The translations under genes and the position numbers were made by a program. A DNA stretch of 43,007 nt from Atractiella rhizophila. Taxonomy: Eukaryota. Positions 1 through 34,486 of the stretch are shown here, in pieces (position 1 is the stretch's first letter; each line of letters begins with the position of its first letter). A model generated the notes under the pieces. The model made no database searches, was not told where the DNA came from, and worked only from the letters and a program-made list of their open reading frames with translations. The stretch lies in assembly GCA_021432655.1 (NCBI GenBank), contig MU271548.1, positions 3,203 to 46,209 on the forward strand, given 5' to 3'.

Positions 1-1245
1 AGATCTATCCTACTACCCACCTCTTACCCGATCTTACCACGAAAGATAGGTGGGATGGCTGATTATAACTATTTCCCATTACATTATCCCTACGCTACCC
101 TGTTTACTGCTTACCGTCACATACTGCCTCGCTTTACGAGTTCGACCTAAACTTAGTGTGACCCTGGTTACCAACGACCAGGTCTAGATGCGGTCTTCTT
201 TGTACGATTAACACGTAAATCCTAGTGGCTCGTTCTGTATTATGTCTAGCGTTTGACCCCTAACTTATGACAAGCGTAGGGACAGCCCATCCGCGAGACC
301 AAAGAGTAAACAAATCGGTTAACAAAAACTGCGAGCCATCTATGACCTAGCACCTACCCCGCTCTCGACGGAGACTAGGTATACGCTGTCCTCCAAAGTC
401 GGCAGAAGTCGCGGATGACGTTACCACGTTGTGAGTGTTACAAATACGGTAGTAGCTAGAAGTGCGTCGCGGACCTCAGAGATGAGGGTTAGTTGTTAAG
501 CGACCAGTAAGGCAGGGGCGAAGAGTCCAACCTAAGATGTTGCTCCTATTGAAACCTTCTCGCTTTGAAAAAGAGACCTTATAGTGCTGAGTATTTTATT
601 GTCTGGGTAGAAAACGGCGCCAAAAGCGAGAACTTCAAGAGTTGCTTGGAACCTGCGTTTTGTGACCGTCGGGTAGGTTGTAGCCGGACTAATGAAGGAT
701 GATGGGCTGTCGAATAGTCTGATAAGCTTCGGCTCTCGTTCTCGACCCCTCCTGTACGAGTTTATGCCCTTGAGGAATGTTTGCTAGAAAGCTGTTCGCT
801 CGGAGAATATGGCTGACGGAGTTGTAGGACAAGTACCTGTGCTTAACCCCGTCACCGCTATCACGATGTAAGGACGGACCTAACTCAGCATTCCAAAAGA
901 AAGTGTAAAGGTTACAGCAAGAGTGTGATAACGTGAAATTTTTCTACAATACAAACTGCTGGTGGCTATGAAGCGTATGTCGGGACTGGAACTATGGTGA
1001 CCGCTTTAAGAGAGCATTTAGAACGTTTAAGACTTCACACGAGACTAGACTGGGCGAAAGATAGCGTCACGGCGAACGCTGTGGTTAGGACACTTCGTTC
1101 CCACGGCGAGGGTTCCAGAAAACCCCTCAAGAGCAGTCAAGAATGGAGGATTGCGCTTAAAAAAACCTGGAAAGACAGGTCCGACCGATGCTGCTTAGTC
1201 TTACCTCTAGACTTTGTGACCTTTGTGACGAAAGATGGTTTTAAT
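1..1245. other. Polarity-reversed segment holding the catalytic exons of the GH5 gene that starts at 2310
   Basis: The complement read left to right (not the reverse complement) gives GT-AG-bounded exons: MMGGEWARM / GCDGTNDEWQCMTERNAQAGFESHWDQW / ITEQDIIQIANWGLNTVRIPVG / YWIVDG..IIDLHAAPGVSTPNQQFAG..ALEVLNEPW..KRSFDKRASYTDCL.. / HVMFDDHRYFAY.. / ..GEFS. These are collinear with the GH5 gene at 32118-34486. Confidence 0.95.
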
Positions 1246-2310
1246 GGTCAGTTTAACCGGGCATGGATATCGAAGAACGAACCAGGGCTCAACGACAAAC
1301 AGTCCTCCTCTTGTTTAAACGATGAAACAATATGCGGGGGATAGAGGACAAAGCGTACAGGTTGACACCTCGAATCTTCCCGGAAGCAAAAGGGAGATTC
1401 ACTTCGTCTACGGGTCAGCCCAAACATTTCAACGGTAAAAGAAGCAATTACGAACCTGAAGCAAAAGGACCTTGATTGTAGGAATTTATCGTCTCGATGT
1501 AGAATCTGCCATCGCCAGAAACACAAATACCACCATGTGCATTCTGTGCAGCAGCACAATTGTTCGCGATGTAGTTGTTTACAGCAGCTTCATGAAACCG
1601 TTAAACAATCTAGAAACATTGCAAAATTTGAAAGAACATACCAAGGTCTGCCGTGCAATAGACAGCCTGAAATCCATTGAATACAGTGTAGGTGCTTAGG
1701 AATATCAACACACATCTTGTCCATCTGAGGCTTGGCTAAAGCGCCATTGTCAACTTTGGCAGGAATAGCATAAACGGCGGACTTGTGGAAAAAGGTCTTG
1801 CAAGAGTTTTTGACGATGGAAGTTTCCTGTCCTGCTTTCGTTGTGAACTGAGAGCCGTACACGCCCACGCTAATCATGCCGCCAATATCCGCACAGTCTC
1901 CTGTGTTGGGACCTTCGAGAGAACACTTCAGCCTGGTCTACTTCAAAGAAAAGGGAGTACACACCAGTACCCGCATCCCCTGTGATCACATCAACCATTC
2001 TTTAAACGTTTCTTCCTTTAGGCGTAGCATGGGTCAAAAACGCACCCGTGTAGCAGAAGGCTTTTGCAGAAGTTGTCAGCTCATAGACCCATGCACGTTA
2101 GAGGAATGCATACTAGTGCATTGACCTCCACATTCATTCGTCGTTCTCTTTCCCAGCTCCCCAGAGCCGTTGTAGACGGAGTGAAACTCTGCTCTCTTCA
2201 ACTTCTCCTTCAGCACCGGGTCATCCCAACCAGTGCTGGTACCAGTGTGGATAGAAGCAGCGTACGATGGCCTGCAAGGCCATAAAGGCAAAGAATGCGT
2301 TCTGGAGCAT
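1246..2310 (-). CDS. 5' part of a secreted GH5 beta-glucanase (GH5_15 beta-1,6-glucanase-like) with signal peptide, propeptide and 8-Cys N-terminal domain; continues in the reversed segment 1-1245; 3' end missing
   Basis: Manual splicing gives MLQNAFFAFMALQAI/RAEF..GKRTTNECGGQCT/TFCYT/GDAGT/GPNTGDCADIGG..KNSCKTFFHN..YCTADL/AAVNNYIANNC..GGICVSGDGRFYIE..GPFAS/VNLPFASGKIRGVNL/GGLFVVEPW. This aligns with the gene at 32118. A TATA-like tttataa lies near 2375. Confidence 0.88.
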
Positions 2311-2373
2311 GGTCTATGGTCTAGATGGACTTGGCTTCACAGATTCATGGAGACAGACATCAACAAGCCTCCG

Positions 2374-3585
2374 TTATAAACTAAGGGAGTATGGCCATAC
2401 TTCGGACCGTACAGGACGCATGAGGATGGCAAGGACATGGTTCCGCGTGTCCATTACTTCCCGCGTTGCGTCTTGGGAGAATGAAGAGAGGATAAGCAAG
2501 CAATAGATCGATTCAGCGCTGATCCGTAGATAGATCGCCTGTTGTTCATTTGGCTGTTGCTTGCGTGAGGAAAGCCAATTCAAACCCCAGAATACAGGAC
2601 GGTATCGCTCTCCGCGGGGTCGATGGACCGGATTACATCCACGTGTGCGGTTCAACGAATGGGGAGAGGATAAGTAAAGAGAGGTCAGGTGAGGTGTAGA
2701 GCACAAGGACGAAGCTTGAAAATAGCAGCGATGATGCGTGCTTTGGGAGATGAATGGTGTAGAAGCGCTGACAGTCTGGCCGAGGTACACAATGCCACTC
2801 ATCTGCACCTTTTTACCTCTGATGATTGGGAAAGAAGTCGTGCTGGCAGAAAAAGGGACTGACTTAGCGTCCGGAAAGATGACGGGAGGGAGCTCAGCGG
2901 TTAACTCGACCATACCAGAATATTCCTGTAACCGACGTCTTCCATGGGGATAAAACCCTCGTTAACCGTCGTCGACCCTCCAGAATATGGTAAGACTGTT
3001 GACGGCTAAAGGTAAGAAGGTAACGACTGGAAATAGTTTGGAAGGACCGTCCGCTGGTGTGCGCCTGGGTCTACTATTCTCTTTGAGCCATCGTGAGGTA
3101 TCCTCGCCTGACCTCATTGGGCCTAGCCAGTTCCATCCAGAAGAGTTGGAGAAAACGGAGACACAATCTTTAGTGTTCTGTCGCAAATATTGGAGATAGT
3201 CGGAAAACGCAACACCATCAAGTGACAGCTCCATCTGTGAACGCAATGATCCATGGAGCGACGAATGACGGCGAGGTGGAACATCCTCAAGCGTATCGTT
3301 TGCCAGTCCTTGCGCTCCCCCAGAGACGAAACTGGCGTGTCAATCGGGGTGGAAACAAGCCATTGATTGCTAGCCACTTGTAAAGATACCTACTGCGCCT
3401 CTTCTCAGCCAACATTTGTCTTTCTTTCTTACTAATGTGCAATAGCAGATCTCTCTTTCATGAAAACTTGGACGAAATGCCTGCAGCCGCAGGAACATAA
3501 TTGGGGAACCTAGAACAGAATTTGTCGGCTTAACGCTAGTGGTCATTCTAATCTTCTCCTTCATTTGAACACATTGTGGGACTCT
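2374..3585 (-). other. Possible hypothetical or degraded multi-exon gene
   Basis: Stacked minus-strand ORF fragments (2374-2913, 2962-3246) with splice-like signals; no recognisable motif. Confidence 0.2.
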
Positions 3586-5753
3586 CAACGTAAGCCCAAA
3601 GAAGGGTCATTTTCATTCATCAAACACAAAAATATGGGACTTTCCAACTTTCAGGGATGAATCCTCAATAGCTTTGGGAGCAGCTTGTTTCATTCTCCAC
3701 TGTAACTCATCCTCCCGTTCCTCACGGATTCAACACGCGCCGTTGAAGATCATCATTCTTGGTCCTCCTCTTCCTTGGAAGCTAACAAAGCAACAGTTGG
3801 CGAAACGAACACCGCCGAGCAAGGGAACACATCTGAACGTTGATAATGGCTCCAATATTTTACTTTAAAAGGACGAGTAGAGGAATATCTCTCCTCGCTA
3901 GCAAGAACCCGAGCGATTCTTTAAAAGTCAAAGTACCTCTCCTTGCTCGCTTCACATGGATCAGCTTGAACACTAGCGAATTGTCCCAACGAGCACGAAG
4001 GACACCAACACAGTGAGAGACAGAGACTGATAGAACGTACGCTCCACTCTTATTAATTCTCTATGCATCATAAACGACAGCCCTGCATTGATACGTTAGC
4101 TCCTTTTATTATACCAGTCGACGAGATTGAGTTGGTCATGATGCATGGTCGTTTCAATTACAAAAACAAACCGATTCCAGTTCAGAAAGAGGGGAGGCCG
4201 ATAATCTCCAGCTCGAATTTATGATAAAGACGCAGGTAAAGATGGGAAGAAAAAGATGTTGGGTCGACAATTACCACAGAAAAATACTACTACTGTAAAA
4301 GATCATATACATAAATAATCCAATGGACTATATATCCTCTCCTCCCGCTCCCACCTCTATCCCCAAAAACGGCCACAAAAAACAATCCTCAGCATCTACT
4401 GACCCTGTTCAAACCATCCCTCCTCCAACCGTCCCGTCCCGCTCCTTCCCCTCCCACCATTTCCACTCCCACTCCCTTTCCCCTTCCCCTTCCCATCCGC
4501 TCCAGCAAAGCCGCCGACAATGACCGCGCTCTTCCTCGGCACGTGCCCATACGTCCTACCCCCTCCGATTCCAGAAAGGTCGCTCCTATTCTTCCTCCTC
4601 CTCTCCCTCCCCGACATCCTCCTCCCACCCGTCAAACTTCCCATCCCAATTCCATCTACTCAACGTAAGCCCACAGAAGGGTCATTTCATCAAACACAAA
4701 GTTTCCAAGATCAGGAATGAATATTAATGAATCCCCAATAGCTTTGAGAGCAGCTTCCTTCATTCTCCACTGTAACTCATCCCCTGGTTCCTCACGGATT
4801 CAACCCACAACCTTGAACATCCTCCTCTTCCTTGGAGATTCCTTCCTCACCTCGTTCACCCAACAAAGCGACGGTTGGCGAAACGAACACCGCTGAGCGA
4901 GCGAACACATCTGAACGTTGATAATAGCTCCAATATTTTACTTTATGAGACGCATAGAGGAGCATCTCTGCTCGGCAGCAAGAAGCCGTGCGACTGTCTC
5001 AGAGTCAAAGTACCTTGCTCCTTGTTCGCTTCATGTGGATCAACTTGAACACCCGCGAATTGTCCCAACGAGCACGAAGGACATCAACCCAGTGAGAGAC
5101 AGAGACTGATAGAACGCACGCTCCACTCTTATCTCAATAAGCGCACAGCATTGCTTCTCTGTGCATCATAGACGACAGCCCTGCATTGATACGTTAGCTC
5201 CTTTTATTATACCAGTCAACGAAATCGAGTTGGTCGTGATGCATGGTCGTTTCGATCACAAAAAGAAATCGATTCCAGTTCAGCAAACGGGAGCCGATAA
5301 TCTCCAGCTCGAATTTATGATAAAGACGCAGGTAAAGATGGGAAGAAAAAGATGTTGGGTCGACAATTACCACAGAAAAATACTACTACTGTAAAAGATC
5401 ATACATAAATAATCCAATGGACTATATATCCTCTCCTCCCACTCCCAACTCTATCCCCAAAAAACGGCCACAAAACACCAACGCTTAGTCATCTACTGAC
5501 CCTGTTCAAACCATCCCTCCTCCAACCGTCCCGTCCCGCTCCTTCCCCTCCCACCACTTCCACTTCCACTCCCTTTCCCCTTCCCCTTCCCATCTGCCCC
5601 AGCAAATCCGCCCACAATCACCGCGCTCTTCCTCGGCACGTGCCCATACGTCCTACCCCCTCCAATTCCCGAGAGATCGCTCCTATTCTTCCTCCTCCTC
5701 TCCCTCCCCGACATCCTCCTCCCACCCCCCAAACTTCCCATCCCAATTCCATC
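3585..5753. repeat. Diverged head-to-tail tandem duplication, ~1.08-kb units (3585-4657 and 4658-5753)
   Basis: Both units begin ctcaacgtaagccca-agaagggtcattt and end ..cttcccatcccaattccatct. They share long near-identical blocks (e.g. gataatctccagctcgaatttatgataaagacgcagg) with SNPs and indels. Confidence 0.95.
4396..4657 (-). pseudogene. Duplicated 3' coding fragment of the DedA/VTT gene
   Basis: Translates to essentially the same C-terminus (..RRMSGRERRRKNRSDLSGIGGGRTYGHVPRKSAVIVGG..LEEGWFEQGQ) as 5493-5753 but lacks all upstream exons. Confidence 0.85.
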
Positions 5754-7253
5754 TCCTCTCCCTCCCACCCCATTCCCGGCACCGGTCAAGAGACTGACAT
5801 GGGCAAGGAGCGCCGTCACCGCTCTCTGCAGCTGGTTCTTCGCCACCAGAGGGACGGTAGAGACCAAGCTGACAAACAAGAGCTTTCCGACCATCCTCGC
5901 ATTCCATATGCCTCCGATCCCCTCTTCGCTCGCGCCGGCCAGGGCCAGGATCTCGCCGCACTGGGTGGTGACGTAGTTGTAGGGCCAGCTGCCGACGACG
6001 ATGGTCCAGAAGAACGGTTGGCGGGGGTGGTGGAGGACGCCGGAGACGAGGTTGAGGACGGAGTAGGGGAGGAGGGGGAAGAGACGGGCGAGGAGGAGGG
6101 AGGAGGTGAATTGGGAGGAGGTGGGAGAGGGGAGGGTGCGTTTTGTGAGCGAGAGGGGCGTGGGGAGGTAGTATGATACCTACAACATATCCAACAAATG
6201 AGATTTAGTGTTTGAGTGGAGAGAGGGGAGAACGAACGAGAGGAGAGAAGATCCGAGCGAGCTCGTAGGCAAAGAGAGAGCCGAGAGCGGTGAGGAGACA
6301 GGAGTAGAGTGTGGCGGCCCAGGTGGAGTAGAGAGCGCCGAGGAGCATGTTCATGAGTATGCTTCCAGGGATGGAAAACGTTTGTTTGAAGAGGAGCAAC
6401 ACGCTGTTCCAAATAGCCGAACATCAGCCGTCACTCCAGCCTTCATTGACAAAGCAAAAAAGGGCAAAGAAAGAGAGCAAAATACACACCATAGAACAGA
6501 GAGTACGTGCACCTCTGCACTCCATGAACTTGTACGGTACTCTTGTAGGCCTTTAAATATGCCCAGCACATCCTTCGCTTCGTGTGGGATCTTCAAAGCT
6601 GGTAACGTGGAGACGAGGAAAGCACAGATTGCGAGGGAGGAGAGGAAGACGACGGATAATATGAGCAGTCCTCTCCGCAACACTCCCGGTTCGAGTATGA
6701 TCGGAGGTTCGAGTAACGGAGGAGGGAGATGGGATGTCGGTTTGGATGTATCTGGATCGGAGGGAGGGTTCGACGTGGGCGGAGTGGACGAGGTGGATGC
6801 TTCTTCCGAGAGAAGATCGTCCATCTCCAACGACACATCGCTCCCATTCTCCCTCCTTCTCTCCTTCCCCTTCATCGACACACCTCCTTGTAAAAGAGCG
6901 AGCGCTGATCCGGCCTCATCCCCGATCCCACTCCCGGCCTTCACATTCATTTCCTCATTCGATGAGTCCTCGCTCGACTCTTCCACCTTCGCCACCGCCG
7001 GCTGCAAGTTCGGATTGCTCGAGTCCTGGGTCTGTCCATTCGTCACGCTCCGCGCTCTGATCCGCTGCGCACTCGTCGACGCATCCGGCCTGAGGTTGAC
7101 CGCGGAGGGCATCACGTCCATCGGCGGGCTGAGAATGGTGCGCGTGGGGGTGAGGGGCAGCGACTGGGAGTGGGCGTGGGGCGGGTGCGAGGGGAGAAGG
7201 GGCGAGGGCGAGGGAGGCGGAGAGAAGGTGAGGAACAGTTTAGGTGCTTTCAT
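5493..7253 (-). CDS. DedA/VTT (SNARE-associated, TMEM41/Tvp38-like) membrane protein
   Basis: Motifs KQTFSIPGSILMNMLLGALY..LLTALGSLFAYELAR and LLARLFPLLPYSVLNLVSGVL..FFWTIVVGSWPYNYVT; disordered Pro/Ser-rich N-terminus; about 3 exons; start codon uncertain. Confidence 0.85.
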
Positions 7254-20560: not shown

Positions 20561-23453
<2,893 letters not shown>

Positions 23454-24285: not shown

Positions 24286-24454
24286 GGCGATGAGATGATA
24301 CTTTACCTTGGACGAAGTAACGATTTGCTGTTTTCCACGAGACCCTACTTCGATCGTGTGGCTCACTATTTTCCTGACGTGACCCTACCTTCACCACCGG
24401 TACTGTCTCCTCTTTTCTTTCTCTCTCGATCGACTGGACGACTAATCATCTACG
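24286..24454. promoter_or_regulatory. Bidirectional RPL36/RPL6 promoter with two GACCCTAC boxes
   Basis: Only 169 bp lie between the divergent ATGs. GACCCTAC occurs at 24341 and 24381 and resembles the Homol-E (ACCCTACCCT) ribosomal-protein element; TGACGT sits at 24375. Confidence 0.65.
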
Positions 24455-25287
24455 ATGGCACGTAACTCGACCATCTCCGCCCATATCGGGCGCCACTCCA
24501 GCTCCAAGCTTCGCTCCAAGACCGGCCTCTACAAGCGGAAGCCAGCATCCACTACCGCCTCCAAGACTGCCACTGAGGCGACAAAGACGAAGACCATCGG
24601 AGGAAAAGCTAACGGAGGCTCCCGCGCCATCCCTACCACCAGGGGACCCAAATATTACCCCGCTGAGGACGTCAAGACGCCGAAAAAATCACGAAAGTCC
24701 ACTTCCGTCGCCAAACTCAGATCCACCATCACCCCTGGTCAAGTTCTCATCCTTCTCGCTGGAAAGTACGCCGGAAAGCGTGTCGTCTTCCTCAAGCAAC
24801 TCTCTTCCGGCCTCCTCCTCGTTACCGGACCTTTCAAGCTCAATGGAGTGCCGCTGAGGAGGGTGGATCAGTCTTATGTTATTGCTACCAGCACAAAGGT
24901 CGATGTTGCCGGTGTGAAGGTGCGCTGATTCTTTATTCTATTTAAGAATGGTAGCGTAATGGTTTTGCCTGTCATCTTGCAGCTTGATGAGAAACTTGAC
25001 GATAAATTCTTTTCCCGCACGGTCTCCAAGAGCAGGAAAGGAACTGAGGGTGAATTCTTCGAGGGCAAGAAGTGCGTCTTCATGTTTCATTGCGCTGCTT
25101 TTGGCGTAACTAACGCGTTGTGGATAACAGGCAAAAAGTGCCCGCCTCAGAAGAGAAGATTGCCTCCCAAAAAGAAGTCGACAACTCCGTCCTCTCCGCC
25201 CTCAAGAGCACTCCCAACCTCGCCAAGTACCTCAGCACCCAATTTTCCCTCTCGAGGACACAACACCCCCATTTGTTGAAATTCTAA
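24455..25287 (+). CDS. RPL6: 60S ribosomal protein L6 (eL6)
   Basis: [76 protein letters not shown]; 3 exons. Confidence 0.97.
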
Positions 25288-26078: not shown

Positions 26079-26953
26079 ATGGCGCTTCCACTCCCTCCTG
26101 TTCTCTCTCCCCTCAACGATTTAATTGACTGTTTGCGTTATTCTCTCTCTCCAACCATTCGAGCTGTCTTTCGAAAACCTGCCCTCCTTCTCTCCCCTTC
26201 TGCTCTTCGTCGAGAGTTTTTTTCGCACACTTGGGCATTAGCTTCTGATGGTATGGACGCTGGACGGAAGGAGGCGAAGCAGAAGCTGCTAGAAGGGAAG
26301 GTGGAAGGGAAGGTGCTTGATGTTGGCGCTGGCCGTGGAGTTACACTTAGATACCTCGATAAGCACAAGGTATATATTTGCTTCACAAATACTGCTTGAA
26401 AGAGTCAACATTTTGATTCCTGCATGGCTAGGTTGAGCTTTATATTGCTCTTGAGCCGAATGTGAATATGCACAGAGCGATTATGGAAGAAGCACGAGCA
26501 CTCGACTGGCGGCCGTCGCAAATCCTGCTTCTTCCTTACACGTTGGAGGGTGAGCATTCATCATCTGCAGGACAATCTAATGGCCAAACAGAACTTCCTT
26601 CGCTGTTTTCTTCGCCCTCCGTGCCTATTTCCCCAAACTCTCTCAATCATGTCCTCGCGATCCTCACTCTCTGTTCCTGTCATCAGAGCTCCATCAGCAA
26701 CATTCACAATGTCCTCAAACCTGGTGGAACATTTCTGTTCCACGAGCACATCCTGCATCCCTCGTCGCGCTGGATAAGGACATGGCAACGATTTTGGAGT
26801 CCCATCGTTGTGTGGTTCTTCGATGGCTGCAGGCTTGACAAGAATACAATGGAAGGCATTGGAAGAGCGGGAGAGTGGAAAGAGGTCGAATGTGAGACGG
26901 TAGGAAGGCTGGATGGCTTATACCCGGCAGTGAGTGGGTTTGCCACAAAGTGA
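26079..26953 (+). CDS. Class I SAM-dependent methyltransferase (METTL7/TMT1-like)
   Basis: GKVLDVGAGRG motif I, YIALEPN, ILTLCS, LKPGGTFLFHEH and FDGCRLD; 2 exons. Confidence 0.9.
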
Positions 26954-32117: not shown

Positions 32118-34486
32118 ATGTTGGCCGTCATCCTCCCCCTCCTTCTCCCCCTGCTTCCCTCCGCAAATGCCGTGACGGATGAATGTGGAGCAGAGTGCAT
32201 CACGACGTGCAACGCCTCCGGAAACGGGCCATGGACGGGGCATTGCGACCAGCTCAACACTCTTTTGAACGATGGAGTGTACGGCACTACGTTCGAGACC
32301 GGAGCAGGGGCAACTCGAAGCTTCGTCCAGAACTCTTGCAAGGCACAATTCGTCAATTCTGCAATCGATTCCACCTCTTATTGTGCCAACGATTTCGCTG
32401 CTGTTGCGAGTTACATCGCTGGAGCATGTCCTTCGGGAGGCGTCTGCAAGTCCTCCAACGGCAGATGGTCAATTGAGGTGAAGAATAGCAATAACGCCGG
32501 TCCCTTTGCTACTGGTTCGCGGTTTCTACTCTATCAGAGACCTATCGATCATTGAGCGTTACAACAGTCAATCTTCCATTTGACAAAATTCGAGGAGTTA
32601 ACCTGTATGTCTTCTCTTGCCGCATATTGCTGTTTAGGCATTGACCTGGATGATCAGAGGCGGGTTGTTTGTCATCGAACCTTGGTACCGTTCTTCGCTT
32701 CAGCGATGTACAAACAATTGATCGAAAACACAGGATGATGGGTGGGGAATGGAGCCGTATTGTGCTTGCGTTTCTATTGCGAGATTACAAAAGTGCTGAC
32801 CTGAGTAACCATCAAGGGCTGCGGTGGCTACAATGACGAGTTCGAGTGTATGACCAAGAACCCTTCAGCTCAAGCGTCAGTTTTTTTTCCCTCCAGCCAA
32901 AGCTGACCTCACATAACATTCGATAAGATAGTGGATTTGAGGACCACTGGGCAAACTGGGTTGGTTCACTCCCTTCATCCTCCCGAGAATCACTGAAGAA
33001 GGTGTGGGTAGATATCACAAGCGGATATTCAACAGATCAAGAACTACGGGCTGAATACCGTGCGCATACCCGTGGGCTATTGGATCGTAGACGTCAGTTC
33101 TACACCGCTCTTTCTTGTTTGCCTTAGGCTGACAAAAGAAATCCAACCATAGGGTGCAAGAGACGCATCCGATCCATATGCTAAGGGAGGTTTCAAGTAT
33201 TTAAAACAGCTGCTGAGATGGTGTGCGGATGCTGGAATGTCTGTGCTCCTGATTTCAGGTGAAAACAGCATTAATCGAATTTTCTTCTGGATAGCTACGC
33301 CATCATCGACCTCCATGCCGCACCGGGTGTTTCGACTCCTAATCAGCAATTCGCTGGTAAATCTGTTTCCGATGCTGACGTTGGATTCTACAACGAAGAC
33401 AATTTCGGGCGAGCCAAGTATTGGGCTTGGAACATCACTACTTCGAAAGTAAACGATCCAGATTTCGCTGCTGTCTTCGCCATTGAAGCCCTCAGTATGT
33501 CACTTCATTTCTATCCTAGTCCGAAAGTATAACTGAGAGGGACGTGGTTGCAGATGAACCCTGGACAAAAAGCTCAGGATCTCCCTCAAATAAGGGACTT
33601 ATTACCTCCTATTACCCTAGTACGCTTCCCCTGTGTCACTTCGACTTTGTGGAATCGAGCCTTATCTCATTGGTACAGCATTTCACACCACCGTTAGAGA
33701 CACTGAGGAGAAGCTGGGCGTGAAGTGCTCCAACACGGGAAGCCCGTACAAGCGAGCGATGCCTTTCGGCAAAAGGGCATCATACACTGACTGCCTCAAT
33801 ATCGTTTACATGGCTGCGAACTGGGGTAGCGGCGATTCCTCAACATTCCTTCCCAGCTTGTCCCACGTTATCTTCGATTCGCATAGGTTCGCTTTCGAGA
33901 TCTCGTGTCGATGTATGGATCTCTGATGGGTTGGTGTTAGGTATTTTGCGTACAGCGAACAAGGGTGTGTCACGACTGCTTCATCCTAGCAGGACTGGCA
34001 TCTCATGGGTCCATAGGAGTGCTGCAGACGTTCTCTCCAACTCTTGCAACACGGCGGTTGCTAAAGAAGTGAACATTTCCTCTTTGGAAGATTAGACTAC
34101 CACTGATACAGAGTCGTTCAGGATCCTGAACCGGTAATGATTGGAGAGTTCAGCCTTGCGCTCCCAAACAACGACGGAGACTTCTCTCAGGACAACACGG
34201 ATTTTTACAGGAAATTCTTCGCCAATCAAGCTTACGTCGCCGAACAGGGCATTGGTGCGCCGAATAAATCTTTTCGTGGGTGACGCGGCTGATAGCAGAT
34301 ATTCAAGGTTCCACTTTCTGGACTTACAAATGCGAGGTTGGAGCCAGCGTAAGCACTTTCATTAGTGCGCAGAGAACCATAACTAAGACTTCTTTGTTGT
34401 GGACGAAGTGGTGCTATACGTCGGCCGTCGAGAAGGGTTTCATTCCTACTAATGCGGCTGATGGAAAGAATGGCAACACATGTTAA
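32118..34486 (+). CDS. Secreted GH5 beta-glucanase (GH5_15 beta-1,6-glucanase-like) with 8-Cys N-terminal domain
   Basis: Signal peptide MLAVILPLLLPLLPSANA; KIRGVNLGGLFVIEPWMM, GLNTVRIPVGYW, IDLHAAPG, NEP (acid/base), GEFS (nucleophile) and FWTYK. Confidence 0.92.

Follow-up and report, generated by a model that had tools for sequence, protein, structure and literature searches.

Reversed but uncomplemented letter order over 1.25 kb at a contig end of Atractiella rhizophila appears to conceal the GH5 domain of an annotated gene

The window considered here is the whole stretch of 43,007 nt that was analysed, taken from contig MU271548.1 of the fungus Atractiella rhizophila, a species reportedly described by Bonito et al. 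in 2017, and positions in it are given as w numbers where a plain number could mislead. No genome paper on A. rhizophila was found among the papers listed as mentioning the organism. The left end of the window carries a GH5 gene on the minus strand, the 5′ part of which is written normally and continues into a block that has to be read in mirror order. A second GH5 gene, written normally throughout, lies at 32.2 kb. Two annotated proteins, P0001 and P0002, serve as references for the features, which are as follows:

1 to 1245, strand not applicable: mirror block, with letter order reversed and not complemented
1 to 9, strand not applicable: last part of the junction intron in plain-complement reading, with a terminal AG (spliced alignment)
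10 to 37, 89 to 171, 222 to 287, 341 to 888, 945 to 1014 and 1069 to 1099, mirror-read: exons encoding P0002 residues 204-478
1100 to 1245, mirror-read: outer contig tail, holding the rest of exon 1069-1133, intron 1134-1181 and exon 1182-1245
1246 to 2310, minus strand: normally written 5′ portion of the GH5 gene (P0002 residues 1-203 by spliced alignment)
1292 to 2438, minus strand: annotated truncated model P0001, a hypothetical protein of 229 aa (229 of 229 residues, 0 mismatches)
2264 to 2265, minus strand: two bases fewer than in P0002, with a resulting frameshift after codon 15 (spliced alignment and run contigs)
32175 to 34483, plus strand: normally written GH5 paralogue (tblastn to P0002 residues 58-561; open reading frames)

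When the minus-strand exon 1590-1937 was used as the query of a protein search, two proteins were matched, both from A. rhizophila. P0002 is a GH5 protein of 561 aa encoded on a different contig (51718 nt), and its residues 230-530 match PF00150 (E 3.3e-17; 63.3 bits, cut-off 23.5). P0001 is the annotated model of the gene at the left end of the window. It uses an alternative start at 2438 and 8 introns, bypassing the frameshift at 2264 by means of this upstream start and an 87-nt intron, then reads through intron 1358-1310 to a TGA after 1292. No Pfam family is matched by P0001. Since P0001 is exactly encoded by the deposited letters, the window is part of the record annotated with it, and since it stops 46 nt before the 1245/1246 breakpoint, the annotators saw no usable continuation. 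It had been proposed in the preliminary description of this DNA that the block hides a real gene from annotation, and this holds: the model ends at w1292 without a Pfam family, while its intact relative P0002 possesses PF00150. The open reading frame that crosses the junction as deposited (w937-1344, plus strand) gave six candidates among public proteins, none of them with E ≤ 0.001.

The structure of the gene was followed by spliced alignment to P0002, in which only GT..AG introns were accepted and frameshifts were permitted. With such an aligner canonical intron ends are true by construction, thus the evidence lies in the exact placement of the introns alone. In the form as deposited, the alignment reaches residue 203 of 561 with 194 matching codons and 8 introns, whereas in the repaired form 493 codons match, 15 introns are placed and the alignment extends to residue 508 of 561. 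The correctly written part begins with the ATG at 2310-2308 and comprises 10 exons, the last of which is 1309-1283, after which the junction intron starts and occupies 1282-1246. These minus-strand bases and w1-9 in mirror reading together form a 46-nt GT..AG intron of phase 2. Both motifs quoted for this place in the preliminary description were recovered, the branch-site motif (aactgacc) as the reverse complement of w1246-1253 and the intron tail (tctagatag) as the complement of w1-9. Beyond this intron, the block contains seven mirror-read exons and six introns, corresponding to P0002 residues 204 to ~508, with the final exon, 1182-1245, ending at about residue 508. The last ~53 codons of the gene are absent because the contig ends.

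In the mirror exons, 275 of 275 residues are identical to P0002 residues 204-478 with 0 differences, and it is through this identity that the hidden gene belongs to PF00150. When P0002 was compared with the deposited DNA by tblastn, collinear matches stop at residue 205 (w1276), and within deposited positions 1-1245 only chance-level matches were obtained (best E 0.91). With the 1-1245 letters string-reversed, collinear minus-strand matches cover residues 204-509, one of them being 186 aa long at 387 bits. The two short motifs that had been read from the sequence alone are both present in the hidden gene, since the complement of w642-650 reads NEP and that of w1123-1134 reads GEFS. These motifs presumably hold the GH5 catalytic glutamates, with the acid/base in NEP and the nucleophile in the later GEFS. 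The earlier claim that the plain complement of w1-1245 continues the minus-strand GH5 gene is therefore upheld by splicing, by tblastn and by residue identity.

In the six normal frames of 1-1245, the longest open stretch is 103 aa, while one complement-only frame holds an open stretch of 270 aa with GH5-type motifs. When the window was divided into 34 tiles of 1245 bases, the first tile ranked highest for open length in mirror frames (270 aa, against 68-167 in the other 33 tiles) and lowest for open length in normal frames (103 aa, against 107-415). None of seven as-deposited open reading frames in or beside the block passed the Pfam cut-off, the best values being E 0.11 and 0.28. A biological inversion was also considered and rejected for 1-1245: it would leave the ancestral order reverse-complemented, and the reverse-complement frames of the block are closed (≤84 aa), with nothing found there by tblastn with P0002. 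The coding frame, the splice sites and the homology of the block are visible only once the string is reversed.

The orientation of the block was also assessed independently of annotated proteins. The rest of the window served as training data for a strand-symmetric Markov model, by which each 415-base segment was compared with the same segment reversed. The three block segments have the lowest log-ratios of all 103 at k=4 (-18.4, -9.8 and -9.9), the other 100 segments having a mean of +8.56 (sd 4.07), a minimum of -3.1 and only two values below zero. The result at k=5 is similar, with the block segments again the lowest three of 103, and that at k=6 is noisier (-20.1, -7.9 and -3.8 in the block, against a minimum of -11.9 elsewhere). 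No second mirrored segment was detected by this test in the 43-kb window. Slightly negative scores at 23.2-24.5 kb were examined as a candidate and attributed to a spacer between two divergent, normally written genes, which we take to be an ARF-type small GTPase-like gene (22602-23453, minus strand) and a ribosomal protein L6-like gene (24446-24928, plus strand).

Further support comes from the paralogue at 32.2 kb, which has the same architecture, an N-terminal Cys-rich part followed by GH5, and the tblastn pieces of which share 28% to 78% identity with P0002. When the reversed window was compared with the window itself, mirrored w444-642 matched w33296-33494 (72% over 199 nt, E 6e-25) and mirrored w742-877 matched w33712-33853 (70% over 142 nt, E 6e-12), whereas the block as deposited matches only itself. 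On sequence grounds, this paralogue and the presence of P0002 on another contig point to a small family of such enzymes. The N-terminal Cys-rich region of ~180 aa (P0002 residues ~17-200; window 2265-1359, minus strand), which P0002 and the 32.2-kb paralogue have in common, matches no Pfam family. Elsewhere in the window, a tandem duplication of ~1.1 kb (3657-4661 and 4727-5758, spacing 1070-1098) was observed, the segments of which are 79-100% identical, include one identical stretch of 111 nt and contain a proline-rich open frame.

Five public sequencing runs share words with w1-4000, the fraction of sampled words being 0.56 for X1, 0.54 for X2 and 0.05-0.07 for X3 to X5. X1 and X2 derive from one sample, which makes them not mutually independent, and this sample may be the source of the record itself. 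Contigs of X1 to X4, which are assembled contigs and not raw reads, were aligned to w1-2490, and 30 letters of each loose end were compared. One X2 contig fits from w1246 rightwards and has ~255 unmatched letters to the left, which begin directly before 1246 and thus place the breakpoint at exactly 1245/1246. The 30 letters compared in this contig are the reverse of w1-30 (30/30). Similarly, the loose end of an X1 contig before 710 is the reverse of w729-758 (30/30). In X4, an intron-less contig passes from the exon ending at w1283 through mirror w10-37 to the next exon, with 29 of 30 letters in agreement and a synonymous change as the sole difference. Contigs of X3 and X4 skip introns 1310-1358, 1402-1455, 1588-1641, 1667-1713 and 1736-1782, in agreement with the spliced model; the library kind of these two runs is uncertain, though their contigs are without introns, and there are no RNA runs among the matching runs. 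The check that had been proposed, in which reads are mapped across the repaired junction, was thus carried out with assembled run contigs and came out in favor of the repaired form, with the junction in X2, the interior in X1 and the spliced join in X4.

The deposited junction at 1245/1246 is bridged by no contig of the four runs, though missing contig cover cannot prove absence. The same limit applies to the depth of X1 to X4, which is 0 in 14 of 15 bins of 1-1245. The cover in one X1 bin (665-747) is caused by a string palindrome of 19 bases at w710-728, which gave the X1 contig its anchor inside the mirror block. In the 43-kb window, only this palindrome and one near 26302 have arms of at least 9, probably by chance. 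The deposited junction (w1221-1270), searched as an exact string, gave 0 matches in viral_contigs and 0 in metagenome_contigs, neither of which is expected to hold fungal genomes.

Relative to P0002, this copy of the gene carries four frame-breaking indels. Three of these are one-base surpluses near w1100, w1119 and w1213, each of which can be placed in a short one-letter run. In the order of the real DNA, w1 adjoins w1246 and the contig truly ends at w1245. All three surpluses fall within the 146 bases next to this end, and the 275 preceding residues are without difference, a clustering consistent with thin support at the true tip of the contig. GEFS is flanked by two of the surpluses and therefore does not lie in frame in this copy as it stands, so that its agreement with P0002, unlike that of NEP, appears only after a frameshift. 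The fourth indel is the two-base deficit at 2264, because of which an alignment without frameshifts ends at residue 15. The missing CG (2264-2265) is present in P0002 and in X1 and X3 contigs, and is absent from an X2 contig as it is from the window. At w2095 and w2125, all X1 and X2 contigs differ from the window. Given the differences between the window and the run contigs at these three places, part of the indels may reflect true allelic variation instead of errors at the tip. X1 and X2 each contain two contig variants at 1276-1391 and at 1962-2077, those at 1276-1391 differing at 3 positions and in depth (~162 vs 90 in X1, ~261 vs 141 in X2), so that the sample has two close copies or haplotypes of the gene.

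Very probably, w1-1245 arose through faulty string handling where an assembled contig has its 5′ end, and the DNA of the organism is ordinary. The two strands of DNA are antiparallel, and by established base-pairing chemistry the product of an inversion or a template switch is always the reverse complement; a segment that is reversed only can neither arise nor be copied as duplex DNA. This chemistry and the run contigs, which carry the repaired form, jointly identify the block as a software error, a polarity error at the contig end of the record. The true sequence would be the reverse of the w1-1245 letters joined to w1246, and the repaired GH5 gene would comprise at least 16 exons on the minus strand, running from 2310 off the true contig end. 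Several slips could account for the block. A leftward extension may have been collected base by base outwards and prepended unturned. Alternatively, a minus-strand piece may have been complemented without being reversed, or a plus-strand piece may have been reversed in error. All three yield exactly the observed geometry, with w1 beside w1246 and the true terminus at w1245. The software polarity error that the preliminary description had suggested is thus supported by the mirror relation, the breakpoint and the repaired run contigs, whereas the kind of slip is inferred.

An ordinary orientation misassembly resembles the block in several respects, since it likewise places at a contig end a segment of wrong polarity to its neighbor and breaks a gene at the junction. 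However, such a misassembly is a reverse complement, shows its genes in normal frames and is possible as DNA, none of which is true of w1-1245. The string operation itself is identical to that behind the reversed, uncomplemented decoys that serve as a null model in homology searches. In an RRE preprint, genome segments that are “reverse but not complementary” are generated for setting false-discovery thresholds, an approach credited there to Wheeler et al. 2012 (10.64898/2026.04.14.718546). Decoys of this kind are deliberate and kept apart from data, whereas w1-1245 is joined to real sequence in a gene-annotated record. An exact-phrase search of the literature, a weak test of absence, found no description of a reversed, uncomplemented block as an assembly artefact among the papers listed, and these use the operation deliberately.

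It is conceivable, though improbable, that the public record is correct and that the reversal was added later, either when the window was excised or as a deliberate decoy or control. In favor of such an origin, the block begins exactly at base 1 of the window, and the window of 43007 nt is not the whole record, given that the contig of P0001 has 46209 nt. Moreover, copies that are reversed and not complemented are made on purpose for false-discovery calibration, as the same preprint describes (10.64898/2026.04.14.718546). Against this stands the public model P0001, which reads through an intron, ends 46 nt short of the breakpoint and is without a GH5 domain. A correct sequence would offer 275 P0002-identical codons after exon 1309-1283, and a homology-guided model should use them. 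By this single argument from P0001, the public record itself would appear to contain the error, and the GH5 domain to have been hidden by it.

That the mirrored order is real in the DNA of the organism is scarcely credible, as nothing beyond the record itself favors it, the run contigs show both a repaired junction and a repaired interior, and a reverse-only join would require 5′-5′ and 3′-3′ linkages. A chance likeness of the mirror frame to a GH5 protein has nothing in its favor and can be dismissed outright in view of the identity of every one of the 275 residues, the 387-bit match over 186 aa and the collinearity of the block with the upstream exons via the closing intron.

As a string-handling artefact, the block is no biological feature and brings no new biology; its relevance is to data curation. 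A public fungal record appears to contain 1.25 kb of impossible sequence, and as a consequence the gene of a GH5 enzyme is annotated as a hypothetical protein of 229 aa without a domain. Blocks of this type escape standard six-frame or BLAST checks, and the same fault may affect further contig ends. That it is systematic, the assembly or finishing step having written many extended contig ends backwards in this assembly and possibly in others built with the same software, is a tentative suggestion that we consider less likely than not. If the fault were systematic, several public genomes would have genes concealed at their contig ends, and these could be recovered by the k-mer orientation test combined with a protein search in mirror frames. 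Since the orientation test requires no annotation, the screening of whole assemblies for such hidden genes would be feasible.
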